Shown in pieces: positions 15,231 through 55,951 of a stretch of DNA of 64,000 nucleotides (position 1 is the first letter of the stretch; the number at the start of each line of letters is the position of its first letter). The notes beneath the pieces are model-generated. The model made no database searches and was not told where the DNA came from. It saw nothing but the letters and a program-made list of their open reading frames with translations. A program made the translations under genes and the position numbers. The DNA is from Escherichia phage vB_EcoM_G9062. Where the stretch lies: sequence record NC_054920.1. The stretch is one strand, 5' to 3'.

Positions 15231-15440
15231 TTAAATTACATGATTATTTATAATAAATTCTCGCGGAACGTTAAAATACCCGATTTTAGTTAATATAACA
15301 ACATCGCCGTTAATAATTACCAGAGAATAATCTTCTGGAGCATTAAATTTCCAATGGGCTCTAATATTATATCCATCAGAACCAAATGCTCGAGTAGCTG
15401 GTCTCCCAGCTTTTTGCCATGCGTAGAAATCAAATTTCAT
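15231..15440 (-). CDS. hypothetical protein (69 aa)
   Basis: minus-strand ORF between soc and 56, where T4 carries segF. Confidence 0.45.
   Translation of the reverse strand: MKFDFYAWQKAGRPATRAFGSDGYNIRAHWKFNAPEDYSLVIINGDVVILTKIGYFNVPREFIINNHVI
15245..15252 (-). promoter_or_regulatory. late promoter TATAAATA upstream of soc
   Basis: plus tatttata is minus TATAAATA, about 30 nt upstream of soc ATG. Confidence 0.55.
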
Positions 15441-15631
15441 TTTGAATGCTCTATAATTAATTTTAAAGCTTCTTCACTGACAAAAATTTCGTCAGGACCT
15501 TCTATAACTTCAACCATACGAAGTTGATTAGTTAAGAGCTCACATACGAGCTCCTTGTTATAATCTTTAAATAGCTGGTCAATACGTTTCTTATGGGCTT
15601 TCTTGAGCTGACGTTTATTTAAACGAGCCAT
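15437..15631 (-). CDS. hypothetical protein (64 aa)
   Basis: ATGA overlap with preceding ORF. Confidence 0.45.
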   Translation of the reverse strand: MARLNKRQLKKAHKKRIDQLFKDYNKELVCELLTNQLRMVEVIEGPDEIFVSEEALKLIIEHSK

Positions 15632-16164
15632 TAATAGCCTCGGTCTTGACGAGCGAAGTTTTCAGCATTTTTCAGATAATAAAGTTTAAAGATTTCCTCA
15701 GCTGACATTCCAAGAGCAATGAATTTATTCATGAAAAAGTGAAATTGATCAATCAGTTCAAATTTAATTTCAAGTTGATCTTCAGGAGATAAATCTTGAA
15801 TTTTCTTGGATTGCATTTCAGAATAACGTTTCTTCCAAGGTTTCCATACAGCAGAAGCTTCTTTTTCGCCATTACTCATACCGCCAAGAGAAGTATATAA
15901 CTCGCGGGTTTCATCTGCGATATAATCGTCTTGGTTTCGCAACCAAGCAAGAACTTCTCCTGCAGTTTCAAGTGAATCAGGATGACGATTTGTTTCTGGT
16001 TTATCATTAGCCAAACGAATCTGTAAATGCCGCTGCATGTCAAGCATAACCTGCAGTGGGTCAATATTGTGCATAATATTCTCAGCATATGCACGATTTG
16101 CTTTATCAACACCTTCAATCAAATGAGCACATTCATTAAAGTGAGCCATTATTTTTCCTTTCAA
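15631..16164 (-). CDS. 56: dCTP pyrophosphatase gp56
   Basis: size and position match T4 gp56; likely true start at 16149 (MAHFNE) after SD AAAGGA. Confidence 0.75.
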   Translation of the reverse strand: MKGKIMAHFNECAHLIEGVDKANRAYAENIMHNIDPLQVMLDMQRHLQIRLANDKPETNRHPDSLETAGEVLAWLRNQDDYIADETRELYTSLGGMSNGEKEASAVWKPWKKRYSEMQSKKIQDLSPEDQLEIKFELIDQFHFFMNKFIALGMSAEEIFKLYYLKNAENFARQDRGY

Positions 16165-16209: not shown

Positions 16210-17549
<1,340 letters not shown>

Positions 17550-22323: not shown

Positions 22324-23479
22324 TTAACTGTTCGAGGTCAGTTTCTAAATCAGCAGCTGATTTACTTTTACTTTCTGGAGATTTAAATTTTTCAACCTTT
22401 GAGTTAATCAATTCATCAACTTCAGCTTCAACAATTTCATTACTATCAATAGCACCTAACTGATAAGCACGTTTAATAGCATCTCGGAATGGTTGATGCT
22501 TAAATAAAGGACCCCAGAATGTAGTGCAATTGGTATCTTTTGCACGCCAAGATTTTTCTTCGCGAATCATCTCGCCGGTTTCTTCATCAAGAAATTCACG
22601 AGCATACCAGCCATTTTTAGGTTTTACCACAAATCCTAATTCAAGAGCCATATCTAACAATCCAGAATAAGGATCGATGCCACCGTCAAATTTAACATCA
22701 ATAAAGAATTTACTTTTTTCTTTAACGGTACGAGATTTTTCTACATTTAGAACAAATTGATACCCCTGAAGATCAGAACCATCTTTAATCTGGCGCTTAC
22801 CGATAATGAATACAGTATCAGCCGAATACATTACGCCTGTACCACCTGTCATCACGGTTTTACTAAACATTTCAATTGTTTCAATTGTATGGTTAACCGC
22901 AACACATGGAATGTTTTTAATACTAAAATAAGGAGTAACAATACGGAATAATGACTTCAGTGATTTAGCACGAGTCATATCTGCCACAGATTTTTCATTC
23001 AAGGCATCTTCCGTTTCTTTCTTAGAAGCCATATTACCAATTGAGTCGATGAATACTATAACCTTTTCACCACGCTCAATAGCTTCAAGCTGATTCACCA
23101 TATCAATTTTCAGCTGTTCAACTGATTGAATTGGCGTATGAATTACACGTTCCGGGTCAACTCCCATGGATCGCAAATAAGCTGGAGTAATACCAAATTC
23201 GCTATCATAGAATAGACAAACCGCGTCAGGATATTTGTTCAAATATGCCGCAACCATAGTCAAAGACATATTTGATTTAAAGTGTTTAGAAGGCCCTGCG
23301 AAAATAGTTAAACCAGACTGCATACCGCCATCAATCGCACCAGAAATAGCAATATTAAGCATTGGAATTTTTGTACGAATTACATCCTTTTCATTAAAGA
23401 ATTTAGATGTAGTCAGTTCAGCAGTCATTTTAGAAGTGGAAGCTTTAATCAAACGGGATTTTAAATCTGCAATAGACAT
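22298..23479 (-). CDS. uvsX: UvsX recombinase, RecA-like (393 aa)
   Basis: N-terminus MSIADLKSRLIKASTSKMTAELTTSKFFNEKD as T4 UvsX; RecA-fold motifs. Confidence 0.9.
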   Translation of the reverse strand: MSIADLKSRLIKASTSKMTAELTTSKFFNEKDVIRTKIPMLNIAISGAIDGGMQSGLTIFAGPSKHFKSNMSLTMVAAYLNKYPDAVCLFYDSEFGITPAYLRSMGVDPERVIHTPIQSVEQLKIDMVNQLEAIERGEKVIVFIDSIGNMASKKETEDALNEKSVADMTRAKSLKSLFRIVTPYFSIKNIPCVAVNHTIETIEMFSKTVMTGGTGVMYSADTVFIIGKRQIKDGSDLQGYQFVLNVEKSRTVKEKSKFFIDVKFDGGIDPYSGLLDMALELGFVVKPKNGWYAREFLDEETGEMIREEKSWRAKDTNCTTFWGPLFKHQPFRDAIKRAYQLGAIDSNEIVEAEVDELINSKVEKFKSPESKSKSAADLETDLEQLSDMEEFNE

Positions 23480-23556
23480 TCATTTTTTCCATAGGCATCA
23501 TTATATTTTCCTCACTGGTTAAAGATAGAGTAATTATAACACAATAAATTTAGGCA

Positions 23557-24405
23557 TTAATCAACTGCTATTGGATGAATAGCATTAAACTTATGAAATG
23601 CTTCTGATTTTTCTTTACGCGAAACGCACATGCGAAGAACCTTTAATGGCTCGTCTTCTTCACCCAACGATTTTCGTTTTTCAATATTAGAAGTTTTCCA
23701 ACGAGCTTGCTCTGGAAACTCTCTATTGATTTGCTCAAGCGCTCTATTATGTTTAGAATTACTACGAATTGAACTACACCCGCCAGGAGCTTGTGCTTTT
23801 CCAGATACAACTAGATATTTGAACAAGGCCAAATGCGGATAACCTTGATTAATTAAATTGAGAAATGCATACATATCTTCGCATAAATCAATTTTTCCAT
23901 ACCCAATTTGTTCTGTCGTAAGTTTTCCGAGGTCATACCATGTATTCGTGAATCCATATGAATTTTCACGATAATTACCCCAAGATGAAGTAATTTTAAA
24001 AATTGATAGACGAGCATGACCGTGATAATACCCGCAATCCATGGCATCTTCAACATATTGAATCAATTCATAGAACTGTTCACGAGTTAATTGATTAATT
24101 TTATCTACGCGCCGTTTATCGTCTCTCTTTCGTATTGAACTCATACGGATAGTAGTATCATCGTCAATCATCCAGATTCGTTGACCTGCATACATATCAG
24201 TAATTGCTTTACGAGTACCGGCAATTCCATTAACATCATCAGGAATAGTTACAATTTTAGCTCTAGACCCATAGGCATCATAATAAGCTTTTTCTTCGTG
24301 TTCACGCACTATAATATGCGGTTCATAATCAGTCGGAAACATATCAAGGGCAGAAACTGCCCCGACACGTTGATAACTTGGAATTACGAATTGAATCATT
24401 TCCAC
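23557..24405 (-). CDS. GT-A-fold glycosyltransferase (282 aa) at the beta-gt locus
   Basis: N-terminal FVIPSYQR strand and IDDD (DxD) motif typical of GT2-like enzymes; lies between uvsX and 42. Confidence 0.6.
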   Translation of the reverse strand: MEMIQFVIPSYQRVGAVSALDMFPTDYEPHIIVREHEEKAYYDAYGSRAKIVTIPDDVNGIAGTRKAITDMYAGQRIWMIDDDTTIRMSSIRKRDDKRRVDKINQLTREQFYELIQYVEDAMDCGYYHGHARLSIFKITSSWGNYRENSYGFTNTWYDLGKLTTEQIGYGKIDLCEDMYAFLNLINQGYPHLALFKYLVVSGKAQAPGGCSSIRSNSKHNRALEQINREFPEQARWKTSNIEKRKSLGEEDEPLKVLRMCVSRKEKSEAFHKFNAIHPIAVD

Positions 24406-25136
24406 TCACCTTTATAGTCTTTTTTCACAATATGAGTTTCGCCAGTATTCCACCAATGATCAACCAAATAAAAATGACGAGAATATACATGAAGACTTCC
24501 AACATTCCATATAATAGAACCTGCTTTATACTGACGAGTTGAATCGCCTGCATTCAAATCAGATACTAATTTATCTAATACGTATTTTTGCCATGCATAA
24601 TCATTACGGAATCCGAAGACCACGTCATTTGAGCGCATGCTTACTACCGCATTGACTTTCTTATCACGAATCAAGTACTGTACTGTATTAGTACACATGA
24701 AATCTGACATACCATCTTTATTGTAGTCAAATTGCATGGATGGACGAGTATAAATCATGATACCACGTCGAGAATCAGGATTTTGACCAAGTTCAGCTAA
24801 ACACATATCATACTGGGCATAGTTATCTTCTGACCAGATAGCCCAACCATAATTCGAGTTAATTTCGCCTTTAGAAGATGCTACCTGCTGCCAAATCTTT
24901 GGTGTTTCACCTGGAATATCTTTAACAAACAAGCTCTTAGATTTATACCATTCAAGTTCACGCTGAATGTATTCATCATTAAGAGCGCCAAAAATAAACG
25001 GTTCATCTGCTACAAATGATGCGCCAATAATTTCAATAGTTTTAACACCAGTTTTATCAACTACGAAATCTTTTTCTTTTAATGCAAGCCCCAAATGAAG
25101 ACGGATTTCTTCAACTGTCATAGAGTCACTAATCAT
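24396..25136 (-). CDS. 42: dCMP hydroxymethylase gp42 (246 aa)
   Basis: 246 aa; thymidylate-synthase-like. Confidence 0.9.
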   Translation of the reverse strand: MISDSMTVEEIRLHLGLALKEKDFVVDKTGVKTIEIIGASFVADEPFIFGALNDEYIQRELEWYKSKSLFVKDIPGETPKIWQQVASSKGEINSNYGWAIWSEDNYAQYDMCLAELGQNPDSRRGIMIYTRPSMQFDYNKDGMSDFMCTNTVQYLIRDKKVNAVVSMRSNDVVFGFRNDYAWQKYVLDKLVSDLNAGDSTRQYKAGSIIWNVGSLHVYSRHFYLVDHWWNTGETHIVKKDYKGEWK

Positions 25137-34636: not shown

Positions 34637-34823
34637 TATCTAAAATGTTGAAGTTAAAAGATACAGCCCAGTCAGTGCAGACTGTAACCTTTTTAATACA
34701 ATTATCTTCAACCTCTAACGGTTCAAACCAATATTCAATAATTTCTTTATGCCCAATATCATCTTTTACTTCGCATTCAAAATGCTGACTCATCATAACA
34801 TTTTTAAATTCATCAAAAGTCAT
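34560..34823 (-). CDS. hypothetical protein (87 aa)
   Basis: overlaps neighbour in a different frame; start uncertain. Confidence 0.4.
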   Translation of the reverse strand: MTFDEFKNVMMSQHFECEVKDDIGHKEIIEYWFEPLEVEDNCIKKVTVCTDWAVSFNFNILDNDTPKSLRDMAVSCIKDAYCEVFDI

Positions 34824-35839
34824 TGTGTTGCCTCTACATATAGCTGATTTGCATATTGAATAAGTGCTTCACGGTCAGAATCAGTGATGTCTGGAATTGC
34901 ATTAATATACTCTTCCATTAATGTCTGAAGCGATTGGACTTCAACTTCTTCACTGTCATCTGACTCGACAGAGTTATCAATCTTTGACACAACTCGTAAT
35001 GAATGCACAACTTTCTCTAGTTCAGATTCAAACTTCGTCAGATTTTTGTCTACTTCAGTTACTATAACACGTACTGATAGATTTGTAAAATCTTTATAGT
35101 CAATTTTTCCTTTAAATGGATAATGAATTCTACGATGCCAGGTAGTATTGTTTGGAATAAATTCCATTCGTTCTGTTTCTGTATCAAACATCCAGAACCC
35201 GCGAGGGTCATTCTCGTCACCTGCAGTTAGTGTCCATGGTGTCCCAATATATCTGACGTTAGCAGCCTCAGAGATAGTATGGAAGTGACCAGACCACACT
35301 TCTTTATAAGTCTTAAGGAAATCAGGTTCAAGACCATGAGATTTCATTCCTTTATAAAAATAAAATCCATTCAGTTCCCAGTGACCAACACAAAAAGAAG
35401 CAGATGAAGTTTTGATGTGTTCAAGAATTTCACCAGTATTTTCTTCACACATCCAAGGAATTAAATCAATCAAACATCCGTCAAAATCTACTGTAGTAGG
35501 CTTATCATACACTTTAACATTATGATATTTAGCCAAAAGCTCAGTAGAAGCATTTGGATGCATTACATTTTTGTAGTGGAGATCGTGATTTCCTACAATA
35601 GTATGTAATGTGATTCCAGCGTCATCAAGCATTTGAACTATTTCACGGGCAAACTCCATAGTTTTATGTGTAATTGCTTTTCGCACATCAAAGATATCAC
35701 CATATTGAATCCATACAGTAATTCCATTTTTCTTAGAATATTCTATCGCTTGCTTAATTCCATCAATTTGAATACCGCGAATCCACTCATCATCAGCTTT
35801 AACGCCTAAATGCCAATCACCCAAGTTTAGTATTTTCAT
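34820..35839 (-). CDS. 47: recombination nuclease subunit gp47, Mre11/SbcD-like (339 aa)
   Basis: phosphoesterase motifs DWHLG, GDIFD, GNHD, GHWE. Confidence 0.9.
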   Translation of the reverse strand: MKILNLGDWHLGVKADDEWIRGIQIDGIKQAIEYSKKNGITVWIQYGDIFDVRKAITHKTMEFAREIVQMLDDAGITLHTIVGNHDLHYKNVMHPNASTELLAKYHNVKVYDKPTTVDFDGCLIDLIPWMCEENTGEILEHIKTSSASFCVGHWELNGFYFYKGMKSHGLEPDFLKTYKEVWSGHFHTISEAANVRYIGTPWTLTAGDENDPRGFWMFDTETERMEFIPNNTTWHRRIHYPFKGKIDYKDFTNLSVRVIVTEVDKNLTKFESELEKVVHSLRVVSKIDNSVESDDSEEVEVQSLQTLMEEYINAIPDITDSDREALIQYANQLYVEATQ

Positions 35840-36440
35840 GGTGTCTTTTCCATCCTAATTTAGCTGCTTTTGAAACCAGTTCTTTAATTTTTCCTTTTGT
35901 CCATTCAGGACCAGGAGGTTCATGACATAACATTTGCTTAACTCCGTTATTATACCATTTTTTACCTTTATTATGTGATGAAGCTTTAAATTTATTTGAC
36001 CTTCCTTTTACATAACCTTCTGGAATATAAGGCAAAAAGGCAGATTTTCCTGTTAATGGATCATGTGAATGTATATTTCCTTTACAATTATGAGAACCAT
36101 ATAATGGATGATTTTGTCCTTTATTATCTCTTCCAAATGAACCTTTTGGAGCAGCATATGACATATTAAAGAATAATGGATTTTTAACTGCATCATGCAA
36201 TCGTTGATAATATAACTCGCATTTAATAGCTTCTTCACGCGTATCAAATTCAGCTAAAATGCATGAATCAAATAAGTGAGGATTATCTGAAAGCTCTTTA
36301 TTATAAATTTTCTTATACTTTTTAGATAAAACTGAGCCATGATATCCAGCTAAATGCCTATCTAAAGACGTAGATCCAATATAAAAAGGAGGAAGTTTAT
36401 CTCCGCTATATATTGTTAAATAAGTTATATATTTTTTCAT
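35817..36440 (-). mobile_element. GIY-YIG homing endonuclease-like gene (207 aa)
   Basis: N-terminal KYITYLTIY...PFYIGST and CILAEFDTREEAIKCE (GIY-YIG core); Lys/His-rich DNA-binding tail; overlaps gene 47 start by 23 nt. Confidence 0.65.
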
Positions 36441-36577
36441 ATATCAAGAACCGTCATTGAAATGCAAAATAAAATTATTGAAATAAACCCATCTGGTGTG
36501 CTAAAGAACCCAATCCAACATGCTCTAGTGAATAGATAAAATGCGAGAAAAAGTATCACATATCCAAGAAATATCAT
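36437..36577 (-). CDS. hydrophobic peptide (46 aa) coupled to GIY-YIG gene, not in ORF track
   Basis: my translation MIFLGYVILFLAFYLFTRACW...; stop overlaps GIY-YIG ATG (ATGA); SD GGAG. Confidence 0.35.
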   Translation of the reverse strand: MIFLGYVILFLAFYLFTRACWIGFFSTPDGFISIILFCISMTVLDI

Positions 36578-36600
36578 TATATCAAACTCCGTATAAAGCT

Positions 36601-36618
36601 AAAGGGCCGAAGCCCTTT
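36601..36618 (-). terminator. hairpin downstream of alpha-gt, C(UUCG)G loop
   Basis: plus aaagggccgaagcccttt. Confidence 0.5.
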
Positions 36619-37819
36619 ATTTTGTAATAATGTCAAACTGTTCTTTAAAGCAGAAGCTTGAATCTTGATGTTGATACAAAAATTCATATGCTTTTTCTCG
36701 CTCACGGTCATAAAGAGCTCGGTCAGATGACAGTTCTTTAATACGTTCAAACGTTGATTCCATATCATTTTCATCAAACCAAATGATACCGCTATCATGC
36801 GAGGTCAAAGGAGTATTATCAACACGGAATTTTAAATTTTCGCCAGTAGATTTCCAAAATACCGGAATTGTTCCACATGCACCAAGCTCGAGATGAGTAT
36901 ATTCTAAAGAACGTTGTAGATATTTTTTGTCCAACTTACTCAGCTGATAACCAAAACCGGATTTACTCATGCGTTCAAGCATTTCGCTATTTACATAACG
37001 GTCAAGAATTTGCGTTGGCAAATTAGGAGCAATTTTAATTTGGTCTACTTGATGAAGACGATAATACTCGTATGGAATTCCCTTTTCTTTAATAGGAATG
37101 AACGCTGGAGAACGTTCCAGACCTTCCATAATAGTACTTAGTCCTGCAGGTTTAAGATGTTTTTCATGAAAATCAAACATCTGATAAAAACCTTTCCATG
37201 TAGTCGTACGACCAATCCAACGGTTGATATTCATGTTAATTTCAGAAACATCTTTCCAGTAGGTTGACCGAACCTTCGCAATATCCATAGGAGGCTGAAA
37301 GTTATATACTGTCGGTGCTTCTTCAATATCATCAAACAGAGAAACAGTTTCTGGATACCATTCTTTCATCAGAACTTTATTAAAATCACCATTATCAGAA
37401 TGACTAAAAATAACATCAGCTCGACGAACAGTTTCTTCTAATCCCAAATTTCGACGCAAAGAAAGAGAAGAATGGTCATGTTGATAAACTACAACACGAA
37501 CAGAAGGTTTAATGTTATCAATAATTTTTTTATAGTTATTAATAGTGTCTTCTTCAACCGAAGTAGCAGGAACTGAATTGATAATTAGAATATCACAATC
37601 ATTTACTAGCTTAAGTGTTTTATCATATTCTTTTGCCAATAAAACCGGAATTGAAAATGATTTATAATCATGCGCGCAATTACGAGTAAATGATTTATCT
37701 TTAGCATAAACCAAAGTTACTTCATGACCATTTTTAATAAACCAATCACGTTGCTCGAGTGAGAATTTTGTTACACCACAACCTTCAAGACCTCGAGCCA
37801 TAAAAATACATACTTTCAT
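36617..37819 (-). CDS. agt: DNA alpha-glucosyltransferase (400 aa)
   Basis: 400 aa; N-terminus ICIFMARGLEGCGVTKFSLEQRDWF as T4 alpha-gt. Confidence 0.9.
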   Translation of the reverse strand: MKVCIFMARGLEGCGVTKFSLEQRDWFIKNGHEVTLVYAKDKSFTRNCAHDYKSFSIPVLLAKEYDKTLKLVNDCDILIINSVPATSVEEDTINNYKKIIDNIKPSVRVVVYQHDHSSLSLRRNLGLEETVRRADVIFSHSDNGDFNKVLMKEWYPETVSLFDDIEEAPTVYNFQPPMDIAKVRSTYWKDVSEINMNINRWIGRTTTWKGFYQMFDFHEKHLKPAGLSTIMEGLERSPAFIPIKEKGIPYEYYRLHQVDQIKIAPNLPTQILDRYVNSEMLERMSKSGFGYQLSKLDKKYLQRSLEYTHLELGACGTIPVFWKSTGENLKFRVDNTPLTSHDSGIIWFDENDMESTFERIKELSSDRALYDREREKAYEFLYQHQDSSFCFKEQFDIITK

Positions 37820-37870
37820 TTAATATCCTCTTTGTTTTGGTTTATTTTACCAAAAATTTATAAAGCAATA

Positions 37871-37888
37871 TAGGAGCCGAAGCTCCTA
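37871..37888 (-). terminator. intercistronic hairpin, C(UUCG)G loop
   Basis: plus taggagccgaagctccta. Confidence 0.4.
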
Positions 37889-38077
37889 TCCACATAATAC
37901 GCCATACAGAGGCTCGTTAGAACTTTTAAATTTTATGCGCTTATATTTTATAGTTCCTTCTGCTTTAGCTTTATCATGAGACTCTTTAAAGCGTCTCATC
38001 ATTTCCTCTTGAGAGGAACGAATTTTATTATAATCTATTTCAGAAGTCTGGTGTTCATCTTTCATAACTGCCACCAT
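37886..38077 (-). CDS. hypothetical protein (63 aa)
   Basis: minus-strand ORF between alpha-gt and 55. Confidence 0.45.
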   Translation of the reverse strand: MVAVMKDEHQTSEIDYNKIRSSQEEMMRRFKESHDKAKAEGTIKYKRIKFKSSNEPLYGVLCG

Positions 38078-38268
38078 TTTTTGACTTGATAAGAATCAAC
38101 CCACACTTTCATATTGGGGTCTGCTCTTACAATAGGAGGATTAACTTCTTTAATTGAACTATCATGGTATTCTTTTTCAGAAATTTTCACACAAAGATGA
38201 CCATTCAAAGATTCAGTAAATCCTGCATTAATTTTAAGACGCTTGAATTTTACGTGTGTAAGCATCAA
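38062..38268 (-). CDS. hypothetical protein (68 aa)
   Basis: minus-strand ORF between alpha-gt and 55. Confidence 0.45.
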   Translation of the reverse strand: MMLTHVKFKRLKINAGFTESLNGHLCVKISEKEYHDSSIKEVNPPIVRADPNMKVWVDSYQVKKWWQL

Positions 38269-38551
38269 TCATATCCTCAATCTGCGATCTAGTAGTCTTC
38301 CAAAGAATACTGATGAGTTCATCGTTATATGGCTGTTTCAGAATATCCCGACTTTTCTTGATAGCATATTCGTATTGAGCAAAATTATTGTTTTCAGCTG
38401 CGATCTGAGCGTGCTTATAAAGACGATTCAGTTCGCGTTTGTTTTTAGACAATAACTTATTTGCTTTTCTTTCTGCTTCAAGACGGTTCTTTTCTTCAAT
38501 AGAAGAAATAAGCTTTTCCACTTCATCATTAATTTCGAGTTTATCAGTCAT
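38234..38551 (-). CDS. hypothetical protein (105 aa)
   Basis: minus-strand ORF, coiled-coil character. Confidence 0.45.
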   Translation of the reverse strand: MTDKLEINDEVEKLISSIEEKNRLEAERKANKLLSKNKRELNRLYKHAQIAAENNNFAQYEYAIKKSRDILKQPYNDELISILWKTTRSQIEDMIDAYTRKIQAS

Positions 38552-38552
38552 A

Positions 38553-38771
38553 TTATTTCTCTAATATAAAATAAAAATCATCATCTGTTAAATGATACCT
38601 GTAATTTAATTTTACACCATTAGATTTAAAAGCGGTATCATACGGATTTTCTGGATCAATATCAATGTCAAGAGCTAAAACTTCCCTGAGATACATTTTA
38701 AGTAAATAGGGAATAGCTTCAACTTCAGGTATTTCTTCCAAGAATCCGGAGAGGTTAATCGTTAGCCTCAT
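38553..38771 (-). CDS. hypothetical protein (72 aa)
   Basis: minus-strand ORF. Confidence 0.45.
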
Positions 38772-42160: not shown

Positions 42161-42631
42161 TTAATCATGTTTCCACACCCCATCGGTATTTGACCAAAGT
42201 CGCTGATTATCTGATCCTCGCCACAGCTTTTTAGTCGGAAGATTTTTCTCATACTTCCCATCAATAATAACATCAACATATTTAAGCATTTCTAGCTGTT
42301 TAATATCTTCAAACTTATATCCTGTCCACAACCAAATGCTTTTATTGGGATAAAGATTTTTAATAGTTTGAACCACAGAGTGAATCACGTCTCTGTTATC
42401 AGGATAAAGAGGGTCACCTCCGGTTATAGTTAATCCTTCTATATAATCATTATTCAAACATTCAATCAATTGTTCTAGCGTTTCACCAGTGAATGGAATA
42501 CCATTTCTAGCATTCCATGTTGATTTATTATAACACCCTTCACATTTATGCAAACAACCTGTAACGAAAAGAACGACCCTGCAACCAGGGCCATTCACAA
42601 AATCACAAGGATAAAATCTATCATAATTCAT
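42161..42631 (-). CDS. nrdG: anaerobic ribonucleotide reductase activase NrdG, radical SAM (156 aa)
   Basis: 156 aa; Cys-rich radical SAM region CDFVNGPGCRVVLFVTGCLHKCEGCYN. Confidence 0.9.
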   Translation of the reverse strand: MNYDRFYPCDFVNGPGCRVVLFVTGCLHKCEGCYNKSTWNARNGIPFTGETLEQLIECLNNDYIEGLTITGGDPLYPDNRDVIHSVVQTIKNLYPNKSIWLWTGYKFEDIKQLEMLKYVDVIIDGKYEKNLPTKKLWRGSDNQRLWSNTDGVWKHD

Positions 42632-44445
42632 TGATGCTTAACCCTATGCATGATTTCTTTATTTTTACCGAGATTAAATCCGCGTTCGTTCGGGTTTCCA
42701 AGATATCCGCATGTTCTTCTTATTGTGTTCATCTTTTTAGGATCAGTTTCTCCACAAATAGAACAAACAAATCCGTTTTCAGTAGGAGTCATTTCATGGG
42801 TACTTCCGCATGTAAAACACTTATCTACTGGCATGTTAACACCAAAATAATCTAAATGTTGTACAGCATAATCCCATACAGCCTCAAGACCTTTTAGGTT
42901 ATTTTTCATATCAGGAAGTTCAACATAAGAAATGTGACCACCTGTCGCAATGAAATGATATGGCGCTTCACGAGAAATTTTTTCAAACGGAGTAATATTT
43001 TCTTCTACTGAAACGTGGAAACTATTAGTGTACCAGCCTTTATCGGTAACATCTTTTACACTTCCATATTTTTCTGTATCAAGTTTACAGAAGCGATAAC
43101 AAAGGTTTTCAGCAGGAGTCGAATATAAACTAAAAGCAAATCCAGTTCTTTCAGTCCACTGTTTAAGATGAGCATTCATTTTAGTTAAAATTTCTTGTCC
43201 AATATCACGACCGACAAGAATATTCAATTCGTGAATACCAATGTATCCTAGGGACACTGAACTTCTGCCGTTTTTAAATAACTCAATTATGTCATCATCA
43301 GGTTTAAGACGAACCCCGAATGCACCTTCTTGGTAAAGAATAGGAGCTACAGTTGCTTTAACACCCTTTAAAGAACTAATTCTACGCATCAAGGCTTCAA
43401 AGCACAGATCCATTCGTTCATTAAATAGCTCAACAAATTTCTGTTCATTGAACTGTGTTCCAATATAAGAATCTAATGCGATACGAGGAAGATTCAGTGT
43501 TACAACACCGAGATTATTACGTCCATCAAGAATTTCATTACCAGTCGAATCTTTCCATACGCTCAAGAAACTACGGCAGCCCATCGGAGAAACAGGAATA
43601 GATGAACCAGTGATAGCTTTATTGTTCTTAGCTGAAATAATATCAGGATACATCCTTTTGCTTGCACACTCTAGAGCAAGCTGCTTAATATCATAGTTCG
43701 GATCGTCTTTATAAAGATTAACACCTTCTTCAACGAACATAACAAGCTTAGGGAAAATAGGAGTTATCCCATCACGACCGAGACCTTTAATACGATTTTT
43801 CAGAATTGCTTTCTGAATCATTCGTTCAGTCCAGTCAGTTCCCGTACCAAATGTAATTGTTACAAAAGGTGTTTGCCCGTTTGAACTAAAGAGAGTATTT
43901 ACTTCATATTCATAAGCTTGAAATGCATCGTATACGTCTTTTTCTGTTTTAGATTGAGCATAATTCAACGCATCGGCGATTTGCCATTTTTCTGCATCCT
44001 CAATATGTTTTGCATAGGTGCGTTTAACATAAGGAGAAAGTACTTTATCTACATTCGCAAAAGTCGTTCCGCCGTATTGGTGAGAAGCAACCTGTGCAGT
44101 AATTTGTGCCATAATTGCAGTAGCAACGCCAATTGATTTAGGAGTTTCAATCTGTGCATTACCAAGCTTAAATCCGTTCTCAAGCATTCCTTTTAAATCT
44201 ACTAAACAGCAATTAGTAAATGGAAGAGCAGGGGAATAATCAATATCATGGAAATGAATAATTCCGCTTTCATGCGCTTTCATAATAAAAGACGGGACCA
44301 TATTTTTGGCAATGTGTTTAGACACAATACCAGCCATAAGGTCCCGTTGAGTTGGAAAAACACGAGAATCTTTATTAGCATTCTCGTTTAAAAGGTCTTT
44401 ATTAGTTTTATGAATCAATCCTTCAATTTCTTTTTCAATTGTCAT
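42628..44445 (-). CDS. nrdD: anaerobic ribonucleoside-triphosphate reductase NrdD (605 aa), uninterrupted
   Basis: 605 aa; C-terminal zinc ribbon CFTCGS...CSICG and glycyl-radical motif RRTCGYLG; ATGA overlap with nrdG. Confidence 0.95.
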   Translation of the reverse strand: MTIEKEIEGLIHKTNKDLLNENANKDSRVFPTQRDLMAGIVSKHIAKNMVPSFIMKAHESGIIHFHDIDYSPALPFTNCCLVDLKGMLENGFKLGNAQIETPKSIGVATAIMAQITAQVASHQYGGTTFANVDKVLSPYVKRTYAKHIEDAEKWQIADALNYAQSKTEKDVYDAFQAYEYEVNTLFSSNGQTPFVTITFGTGTDWTERMIQKAILKNRIKGLGRDGITPIFPKLVMFVEEGVNLYKDDPNYDIKQLALECASKRMYPDIISAKNNKAITGSSIPVSPMGCRSFLSVWKDSTGNEILDGRNNLGVVTLNLPRIALDSYIGTQFNEQKFVELFNERMDLCFEALMRRISSLKGVKATVAPILYQEGAFGVRLKPDDDIIELFKNGRSSVSLGYIGIHELNILVGRDIGQEILTKMNAHLKQWTERTGFAFSLYSTPAENLCYRFCKLDTEKYGSVKDVTDKGWYTNSFHVSVEENITPFEKISREAPYHFIATGGHISYVELPDMKNNLKGLEAVWDYAVQHLDYFGVNMPVDKCFTCGSTHEMTPTENGFVCSICGETDPKKMNTIRRTCGYLGNPNERGFNLGKNKEIMHRVKHQ

Positions 44446-54965: not shown

Positions 54966-55427
54966 TCATTCAGCCTTATATTCAATAACAGGACATACTT
55001 TAGCTTTACGAGCTTTTAAAAATTCAACGATAATCGATTTCTTGGGTTGAATAGGAGGTAAACCTTTATACGCCCTATCAATATTTTCTACGTGTAAAGC
55101 ATAATCCTTTTTCCATTTATAATCTTTATATTTTTCACGCAGTTGTGCAGGAATAACAAATGAACCGATAATAAGTAAAACAAGCAAAATGGCAAGTATA
55201 AATGCTGATGGAATAAGAGTCCATAAACTACCAAAAATAAGCCATTTCTGTATGATTTCTGCGCAGATGATAGTTAGACCTACGAGTATAGTACATCCGA
55301 AAAAAGAAACGAAAAATGTAGGAATAACAATAGACCAAAAATACGCGCACAGTGTCTTAGGTCGTTTCCATTCATCATTAAACATTTTGAATAATTTATA
55401 ATGCCAAGAGTTTTCATTAATAATCAT
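54966..55427 (-). CDS. membrane protein (153 aa)
   Basis: at least three hydrophobic helices. Confidence 0.5.
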   Translation of the reverse strand: MIINENSWHYKLFKMFNDEWKRPKTLCAYFWSIVIPTFFVSFFGCTILVGLTIICAEIIQKWLIFGSLWTLIPSAFILAILLVLLIIGSFVIPAQLREKYKDYKWKKDYALHVENIDRAYKGLPPIQPKKSIIVEFLKARKAKVCPVIEYKAE

Positions 55428-55429
55428 AA

Positions 55430-55951
55430 TTATCCTTTCATTGAAGGTGTAACAGTTGTTAAATACTTAATCATAGCTTCAGCTTCTGATTTTGATAATG
55501 AAATTTCTCCATTGTTTTGACGAATAGAAATAAAATCCGGATGACGGTCACCACCAGCTTTTAAAACACACATATAAGTATCAGTTTCATCTTCAATATT
55601 TGAAATGATTGAAGCAGTTCCACATGAATGTGGTTTTTGATAAATCAATACAGCTTTTCTTCCACCGTTTGACTGTTCATAAACTTTTAACACATCAAAC
55701 AAATCACTTCTTTTATCAATAGCTAAGATGTTGTTTTCATCTTCAATGTTAAATCCTTCGGATACTTCATAAAGCGTTACCCATAAATCACCTATATCGA
55801 TAGTAGCATTTTCCTTTCCATGACTTTCAAGAGCATGACAAATTTTCTTGATTTCATCATAACTCATTTTAATAATATCATCTCCTTGAATAAGGAAGAT
55901 GTCATTTTTAAATTCAACACGAATTAAACCGCTTCCACTTGAAATAAACAT
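55430..55951 (-). CDS. hypothetical protein (173 aa)
   Basis: minus-strand ORF. Confidence 0.5.
   Translation of the reverse strand: MFISSGSGLIRVEFKNDIFLIQGDDIIKMSYDEIKKICHALESHGKENATIDIGDLWVTLYEVSEGFNIEDENNILAIDKRSDLFDVLKVYEQSNGGRKAVLIYQKPHSCGTASIISNIEDETDTYMCVLKAGGDRHPDFISIRQNNGEISLSKSEAEAMIKYLTTVTPSMKG

Follow-up and report, generated by a model that had tools for sequence, protein, structure and literature searches.

A probable homing endonuclease gene of the Seg-like GIY-YIG type beside gene 47 of a T4-like Escherichia phage

Introduction

Among the T-even phages, differences in gene content and local marker exclusion stem mainly from homing endonuclease genes. Here we describe a probable new member of this class in Escherichia phage vB_EcoM_G9062 (NC_054920.1): a free-standing open reading frame (ORF) for a protein of 207 amino acids (aa), located between genes 47.1 and 47 on the minus strand and carried by an insert of 601 base pairs (bp). 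Throughout, ‘the window’ denotes the whole stretch of 64,000 nucleotides (nt) that was analysed, which is collinear with T4 coordinates 12-64938 and has Escherichia phage ECO4 as its best public match (99.1%).

The T4 catalogue comprises 15 homing endonuclease genes, none of them at the 47.1/47 junction; the closest is mobB, between a-gt and a-gt.2 (PMC2988022), and 47.1/47 is likewise not among the T4 seg sites listed in Table 1 of that work. T4 Seg enzymes cut their target, after which the gene is copied by recombinational repair, causing local marker exclusion (PMC2988022). The genes for SegF and SegG abut the essential DNA-metabolism genes 56 and 32; these enzymes are thought to cut the neighbouring gene in a rival genome, and flanking markers are co-converted (PMC2988022).

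Like the genes for T4 SegE, SegA-D and SegG, the gene described here stands free between phage genes, encodes about 200-220 aa with a GIY-YIG domain at the N-terminus, shares the signature YIG...(D)GYxGS, and occurs sporadically among T-even phages. It differs from them in belonging to a separate subfamily (phrog_10820) and in having a C-terminal half without a recognisable NUMOD or helix-turn-helix domain. Like segF and segG, it adjoins an essential DNA-metabolism gene; however, cleavage sites and marker exclusion were measured for SegF and SegG, whereas for the 207-aa enzyme we infer them, and the 601-bp cassette overlaps its neighbour, borrowing that gene’s start context and an internal TGA as stop codon. 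In contrast to the 207-aa protein, I-TevI (catalytic domain: PDB 1LN0/1MK0) is intron-encoded and possesses a zinc-finger linker and a helix-turn-helix DNA-binding domain; the two proteins have no significant sequence match, and the equivalent of I-TevI Arg27 is not strictly conserved in the new family.

T4 mobB is also an optional endonuclease gene of the a-gt neighbourhood, one gene away, but it belongs to the HNH family, occupies another slot and is absent from the window. At the a-gt/a-gt.2 junction (window positions 37811-37834), a-gt.2 follows a-gt almost directly, the T4 mobB segment (T4 37885-38679) being missing; the a-gt neighbourhood therefore has two alternative optional endonuclease slots, filled by mobB in T4 and by the Seg-like gene in this phage. 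The example of mobB shows that the a-gt region is a hot spot for optional endonuclease inserts.

Existing labels for the gene include ‘putative homing endonuclease’ (BASEL phage Bas39), ‘homing endonuclease’ (LC53, KP185) and ‘HNH endonuclease’ (RefSeq). It is an uncharacterised addition to a well-known type of mobile element, and as such will not surprise the specialist, nor does it change the general picture of T-even genome biology. What it adds is modest: such an element is anchored in six genera to the start of an Mre11-like gene, it borrows its start and stop codons, and its candidate sensitive, resistant and decayed alleles make up a natural panel.

Results and Discussion

A 601-bp insert with borrowed start and stop codons

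Alignment with T4 reveals an insert of 601 bp (35840-36440, minus strand) exactly between the stop codon of gene 47.1 and the ATG of gene 47. The ORF that it carries (35817-36440 including the stop codon, minus strand), delineated by the ORF list, PHROG 10820, Pfam, and fold and profile comparisons, is probably a Seg-like homing endonuclease cassette; it lies outside any intron or intein and is thus free-standing. A first-pass annotation, made from the sequence alone, had placed a free-standing GIY-YIG homing endonuclease between gene 47 and alpha-gt, overlapping the start of the former and preceded by a 46-aa ORF, and had taken T4 to have no known seg gene at this position. The ORF list confirms this layout, and the T4 annotation together with the clean 601-bp insert bears out the absence from T4. 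That annotation had also proposed aligning the junction with T-even genomes, an exercise that defined the boundaries of the insert at the heptamer ATGAAAA.

This heptamer forms a 7-bp direct repeat, which leaves the boundary ambiguous by 7 nt: the left copy (36434-36440, minus strand) is the start of the endonuclease ORF, and in T4 the start of gene 47, while the right copy (35833-35839, minus strand) is the start of gene 47 in the window. Lacking its own stop codon, the inserted ORF terminates at a TGA internal to gene 47 (35817-35819), formed within the codons GGTGAT for Gly7-Asp8 of gp47 phosphoesterase motif I, MKILNLGDWHLG. The two genes consequently overlap by 23 nt (35817-35839, minus strand), as they do in SEA1, avDM2 and QL01 (see below). 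Gene 47 itself (34820-35839, minus strand; identified by Pfam Metallophos and the T4 annotation) encodes an Mre11/SbcD-like nuclease subunit and is the presumed target gene.

Upstream, the TGA of the 46-aa ORF overlaps the ATG of the 207-aa ORF (ATGA, in the context ATATGA). The first-pass annotation had taken this hydrophobic ORF for a coupled companion of the endonuclease; its length and the overlap are as described, but the partnership is not. It is gene 47.1 (36437-36577, minus strand; T4 annotation, phrog_6693), a predicted membrane protein with a grand average of hydropathy of 1.73 that is 100% identical to its T4 counterpart, is also found in phages without the nuclease gene, and in T4 abuts gene 47 directly through the same ATGA overlap, with no gene between. 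Because the identical ORF exists in cassette-less T4, we regard it as a resident gene outside the insert, and reject the mini-ORF as part of the mobile unit.

Since the insert begins with the same ATGAAAA as gene 47, it took over the translational coupling from 47.1 to 47. Carriers offer no good Shine-Dalgarno sequence in front of the gene 47 ATG, and, as a side effect, translation of gene 47 would follow that of the endonuclease ORF instead of that of 47.1.

The insert has a GC content of 30.3%, against 34-36% in its flanks. The 207-aa ORF is not a chance reading frame, since it recurs in 66 phage records at 97-100% protein identity (49 copies at 99% or above, 66 at 95% or above), has relatives of 49-80% identity elsewhere, and shows a low ratio of non-synonymous to synonymous substitution rates (dN/dS); the ratio between genera is 0.11-0.24, so the protein is under purifying selection.

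A predicted GIY-YIG nuclease domain

The N-terminal domain (aa 1-100; 36141-36440, minus strand) is predicted to run strand-strand-helix-helix-strand-helix and bears Y7, Y20-I-G, E75 and N92. An AlphaFold model built on 39 relatives has a predicted local distance difference test score (pLDDT) >90 over about the first 90 residues and displays the fold of the GIY-YIG superfamily, a three-stranded antiparallel sheet flanked by helices. Its best structural matches are I-TevI, UvrC and Eco29kI; in a Foldseek search against PDB, the top three matches were all the I-TevI catalytic domain (probability 0.97-1.0).

Y7, Y11, Y20-I-G, Y33, G35, S39, A71, E75 and N92 are invariant or nearly so across the 39 relatives: E75 and N92, the equivalents of I-TevI E75 and N90, are present in all 39, while Y7 (within TYLTIY) and Y20-I21-G22 are present in 38/38 aligned relatives. 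The motifs quoted in the first-pass annotation, YITYLTIY...FYIGST and CILAEFDTREEAIKCE, are indeed present in the protein. The tyrosine motifs are 13 residues apart (Y7 to Y20), compared with the canonical spacing of about 10-11, and the hairpin between them is longer than in I-TevI (13 vs. 11 residues). With the predicted fold and the Tyr, Glu and Asn residues all in place, the assignment of the 207-aa protein to the GIY-YIG nucleases stands; the evidence from sequence is weak by itself, that from the predicted structure clear.

A profile hidden Markov model of the N-terminal domain, run against nine T4 GIY-YIG proteins, matched SegE (26.8 bits), SegG (20.7), SegB (16.7), SegD (14.7), SegA (13.1) and SegC (10.5); SegF, I-TevI and I-TevII were not significant. 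These scores (six of the seven Seg proteins, at 10-27 bits) point to a remote sequence relationship to the T4 Seg proteins and, along with the invariant Glu75, Asn92 and both tyrosines, support the Seg-type assignment. Pairwise similarity was too low for tblastn with the T4 Seg proteins to detect any of them in the window. Within the family, Pfam GIY-YIG was matched by 12 of the 39 relatives at E<0.01, one relative matches Pfam SegE_GIY-YIG, and 19 of the 39 carry NUMOD3; a search of NCBIfam returned nothing useful.

A GIY-YIG nuclease might also have a job other than homing, such as degradation of host DNA (like T4 EndoII) or a restriction-like attack against foreign DNA (like the GIY-YIG enzyme PD-T4-3). 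We consider this very improbable, as the profile similarity is to Seg homing endonucleases, relatives carry the NUMOD3 modules typical of homing endonucleases, the N-terminal domain family is multi-copy and scattered in phage contigs in the manner of homing endonuclease genes, and the gene is dispensable, being absent from 87% of Tequatrovirus records.

The protein matches PHROG 10820 (E=1e-94), a family labelled ‘HNH endonuclease’. No HNH Pfam family was matched at an E-value of 0.1 or better in the 207-aa protein, and the GIY-YIG fold and motifs rule out this label, shared by RefSeq and phrog_10820, as a propagated misannotation. The RefSeq and PHROG labels of the family should read GIY-YIG (Seg-like).

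A basic C-terminal half that may set target specificity

In the predicted structure, the C-terminal half (aa 101-207; 35820-36140, minus strand) consists of two beta-hairpin modules and a short helix, presumed to bind DNA and specify the target. The first-pass annotation had described a Lys/His-rich tail of Seg type. The region is basic (isoelectric point of 10), but it matched no Pfam domain or solved fold, and these comparisons lend no support to the resemblance to a Seg tail. Many relatives carry NUMOD3 repeats in the C-terminal position.

Taken by itself, the N-terminal domain occurs widely among phage contigs: it has 234 relatives in IMG/VR, several of them in the same contig in some cases. 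Among the best 80 of these 234, only three adjoin a gene 47 homologue, and the same three share the C-terminal half; adjacency to gene 47 only in company with this half is as expected of a modular enzyme in which the C-terminal half sets the target. Two contigs of uncultivated phages, IMGVR_UViG_3300008266_000538 (L096, L102, L122) and IMGVR_UViG_3300008120_000180 (L097, L103, L143), have at least three copies of the N-terminal domain each, in different places, none of which adjoins a gene 47 homologue.

Sporadic distribution within Tequatrovirus

The complete locus is present in 67 phage records of roughly 530 Tequatrovirus, about 13%, and a probe for the carrier junction recovered the same 67 (65 of them exact); the gene is thus far from universal among T-even genomes. 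An uninterrupted 47.1/47 junction occurs in about 465 records, including T2, T4, T6, RB5, RB14, RB27 and RB55. We compared the flanks of eight carriers and ten cassette-less genomes: at the identical junction, all six intact carriers have an insert of 601 bp, whereas its length is 0 bp in each of the ten genomes without the cassette, and it is therefore sporadically present at a fixed site among close relatives, as Seg-type genes are. The copies in KNP1 and KNP5 have a 124-bp internal deletion that leaves 477 bp, and those in ZCEC15 and ESh36 are frameshifted.

The flanks of carriers differ. The 3′ end of a-gt is the T4-type allele in fPS-90 and the window type in the other carriers compared, and in gene 47, only tens of bases away from the insert, single-nucleotide polymorphisms are already shuffled between genomes with and without the cassette. 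A long co-conversion tract common to carriers was sought via flanking haplotypes; because of this shuffling none emerged, and only four silent sites, described below, track the cassette. Low GC content, degenerate copies and varied carrier flanks are signs of the life cycle of a mobile element.

Alternatively, the gene may once have encoded a homing endonuclease and have since lost its mobility, and be now in decay or retained for a different function, such as adjusting the translation of gp47 by way of the coupled, overlapping frames or harming competitor genomes with no copying of itself. Deleted or frameshifted copies would fit this account, as would the divergence between genera, which parallels that of gp47, and the position of the ORF inside a coupling chain 47.1 -> ORF -> 47 in which gene 47 lacks a good Shine-Dalgarno sequence. 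We nonetheless hold it to be unlikely: most copies are intact and under the purifying selection noted above, there is no variation in the catalytic Glu, Asn and Tyr residues, the flanks of the cassette vary among the genomes that bear it, and no regulatory need is evident, since direct coupling to 47.1 serves to express gene 47 in phages that lack the ORF.

Homologues at the same site in other genera

Full-length homologues with 49-80% identity lie immediately 5′ of gene 47 in five other genera. The 23-nt overlap with gene 47 is kept in Gelderlandvirus SEA1, Biquartavirus avDM2 and the Mosigvirus-like contig QL01, three of the four other genera in which it was checked; the Winklervirus LC53 homologue is separated from gene 47 by a 121-nt gap, and the Jiaodavirus KPV15 homologue, also beside gene 47, is frameshifted. 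The right end is fixed at the gene 47 start, while the left neighbour varies: 47.1 in Tequatrovirus carriers, another small ORF in SEA1, and, in the Mosigvirus-like carrier, no detectable 47.1 upstream of the cassette. Cassette-less genomes of several genera possess the exact ATGA junction of 47.1 and 47.

Occupation of one slot across six genera, with the same overlap in most of those checked and an endonuclease identity between genera similar to that of gp47, would also be expected if the gene were an ancestral Straboviridae resident, lost by most T-even lineages and neither inserted nor currently mobile. This history seems to us improbable, more so than that of an immobile relic. It demands repeated loss that is base-perfect, which the ATGAAAA repeat makes possible, but in many lineages; moreover, the left boundary differs between genera, GC content is low, and carriers are found on both a-gt allele classes.

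A cluster of silent changes in gene 47

Next to the insert, gene 47 of the window differs from T4 at four synonymous positions (nt 9, 10, 15 and 18; 35822-35831, minus strand), identified in the T4 alignment and forming a candidate target-site or immunity patch: codons 3-6 read ATT TTA AAT TTA in T4 and ATA CTA AAC TTG in the window. Over the whole gene, 31 of 1020 positions differ between the two, and these four are the only differences within the first 123 nt. Comparison of 600 nt with the nearest cassette-less contig gives 15 differences, of which four lie within nt 9-18. A binomial estimate for such a 10-nt stretch is about 7e-5, for a stretch chosen after being seen.

The variant codons are present in all eight aligned carriers, with P922 reverting at nt 10, and the carrier-junction probe suggests that about 65 of the 67 carriers have them. 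Cassette-less genomes have the T4 codons, with few exceptions. SHFML-26, BCPEco_001, BCPSen_003 and Ec_YwIITB1 match the variant exactly, PBM-1, UGKSEcP1, EPIMAM01 and UGKSEcP2 nearly so, and RB14 is intermediate. The sequences of these cassette-less variants are exactly what deletion of the cassette through ATGAAAA would leave, and could equally be pre-existing alleles. In Shigella phage SHFML-26, which is cassette-less with variant codons, an 855-nt ‘homing endonuclease’ is annotated after 46.1, where gene 46 normally begins (L053, 2994-3078); possibly this, too, is an optional insert carrying an endonuclease, located one gene more downstream.

When the Mosigvirus-like carrier is compared with its nearest cassette-less relatives, differences lie at nt 9, (10), 12, 15 and 18, and then not again until nt 39. 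The background is higher here, at 11%, and this cluster in codons 3-6 amounts to a partial, independent replicate. Together, the clustering and the replicate are suggestive of a change in the target site, without proving it.

It is conceivable, if doubtful, that the four silent changes are the immunity determinant against an enzyme for which the 5′ end of gene 47 is the recognition site, and that the variant cassette-less phages represent resistant alleles or ATGAAAA excision products. If so, invasion, decay (KNP5, ZCEC15, ESh36), loss and resistance would all be visible at one site in one genus, with a parallel homing-endonuclease cycle at the same site in five other genera.

A proposed homing cycle, and the points that weigh against it

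Taken as a homing endonuclease, the 207-aa protein would cut DNA with its N-terminal GIY-YIG nuclease domain and owe its target specificity to the basic C-terminal half, and would be translated through the 47.1 stop/start overlap that first served gene 47. In cassette-less genomes, the site bound by the C-terminal half would be either the 47.1/47 junction or the 5′ end of gene 47. During mixed infection, the enzyme would then cut cassette-less T-even genomes at or near this junction, within the 5′ end of gene 47, and the break would be repaired by recombination from the cassette-bearing genome, copying the cassette and a short flanking stretch. The carrier would be protected by the insertion, which splits the site, by the four silent changes, which alter it, or by both. 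The insert with its boundaries, the predicted fold, the patchy distribution, the slot kept across genera and the degenerate copies are documented here; cleavage, target position, immunity and homing are proposed.

Several findings weigh against this interpretation. The Pfam GIY-YIG family (PF01541) matches the 207-aa protein at 21.4 bits (E=3e-4), under the gathering cutoff of 22.6, and PDB sequence searches found no nuclease, either with the single protein or with a 39-member profile. The first-pass annotation had made its assignment depend on the catalytic Arg and Glu residues. The Glu is kept; at position 28, the presumed equivalent of I-TevI Arg27, the 207-aa protein has Arg, while the family as a whole has K (21), R (9), N (6) and Q, S or E (one each), so that K/R is found in only 30 of the 39 family members. 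No match to the C-terminal half was found among Pfam families or solved folds, nor does it match a known DNA-binding domain. Between genera, the endonuclease has diverged roughly in step with gp47 (80% vs. about 77% identity for Gelderlandvirus), which also fits long vertical residence. The silent sites are 9-18 nt from the insert; their association with the cassette is therefore expected by proximity alone, and is no proof of immunity. Finally, a literature search found no paper naming or testing this gene.

For the study of target recognition and resistance there is thus a natural test set, made up of carriers, decayed copies, and phages that lack the cassette and have either T4-type or variant codons. 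The locus also adds a site at which crosses of therapeutic or laboratory T4-like phages would skew the inheritance of a-gt, 47 and 46.

Neighbouring features and other differences from T4

On the minus strand, the order is a-gt, a GC-rich hairpin, the 46-aa hydrophobic ORF, the 207-aa ORF, gene 47, 46.2, 46.1 and 46. The upstream neighbour a-gt (36617-37819, minus strand) encodes the DNA alpha-glucosyltransferase (Pfam AGT, E=1.8e-237). Just past its stop codon is the terminator-like GC-rich hairpin (36600-36619, minus strand), which T4 also has and which depositors annotated as a terminator in GiZh, SA20RB and fPS-90.

A candidate promoter resembling T4 middle promoters, GCTT-N14-TATAAT (36576-36599, minus strand), overlaps the start of 47.1; it is common to T4 and was recognised by sequence reading and in the annotation of the SA20RB depositors. 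Its -10 element overlaps the ATG of 47.1, and a transcript from it would therefore skip the 47.1 start codon. A stricter regular expression for the MotA box did not match this site. A sigma-70 promoter scan gave no excess of sites over shuffled sequence, neither a T4 late promoter (TATAAATA) nor a strict MotA-box promoter was found between 35700 and 37000, and these scans gave no sign of a promoter belonging to the cassette itself.

Elsewhere, the window lacks several T4 segments, namely the 60.1/mobA insert, segF, segA and beta-gt, mobC, the nrdD intron with I-TevII, and mobD; the positions at which it differs from T4 in these respects are 2782-2847, 15252-15668, 23467-24414, 42611-42631, 43907-43910 and 54970-55933. 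In place of segA and beta-gt there is an ORF for a 282-aa TAGT-family glycosyltransferase (23557-24405), and in place of mobD there are two ORFs (54966-55951), of which one encodes a y05I-like putative transcription factor. No paralogue of the 207-aa gene, nor any homologue of a T4 Seg protein, was found elsewhere in the window.

Two phage records with Pseudomonas in their names also match the locus: vB_PSGBLB0006 at 98.5% over 1701 nt, and PsgM02F by a 48-nt probe match alone, at 91.7%. Their host labels may reflect contamination or mislabelling. An insert of roughly 540 bp without T4 counterpart, between dam and gene 61, holds a 186-aa ORF (16989-17549, minus strand) whose sole matches are weak and below threshold, to Pfam DpnII (E=0.0045) and the BanI restriction endonuclease; this ORF may be another optional nuclease gene.

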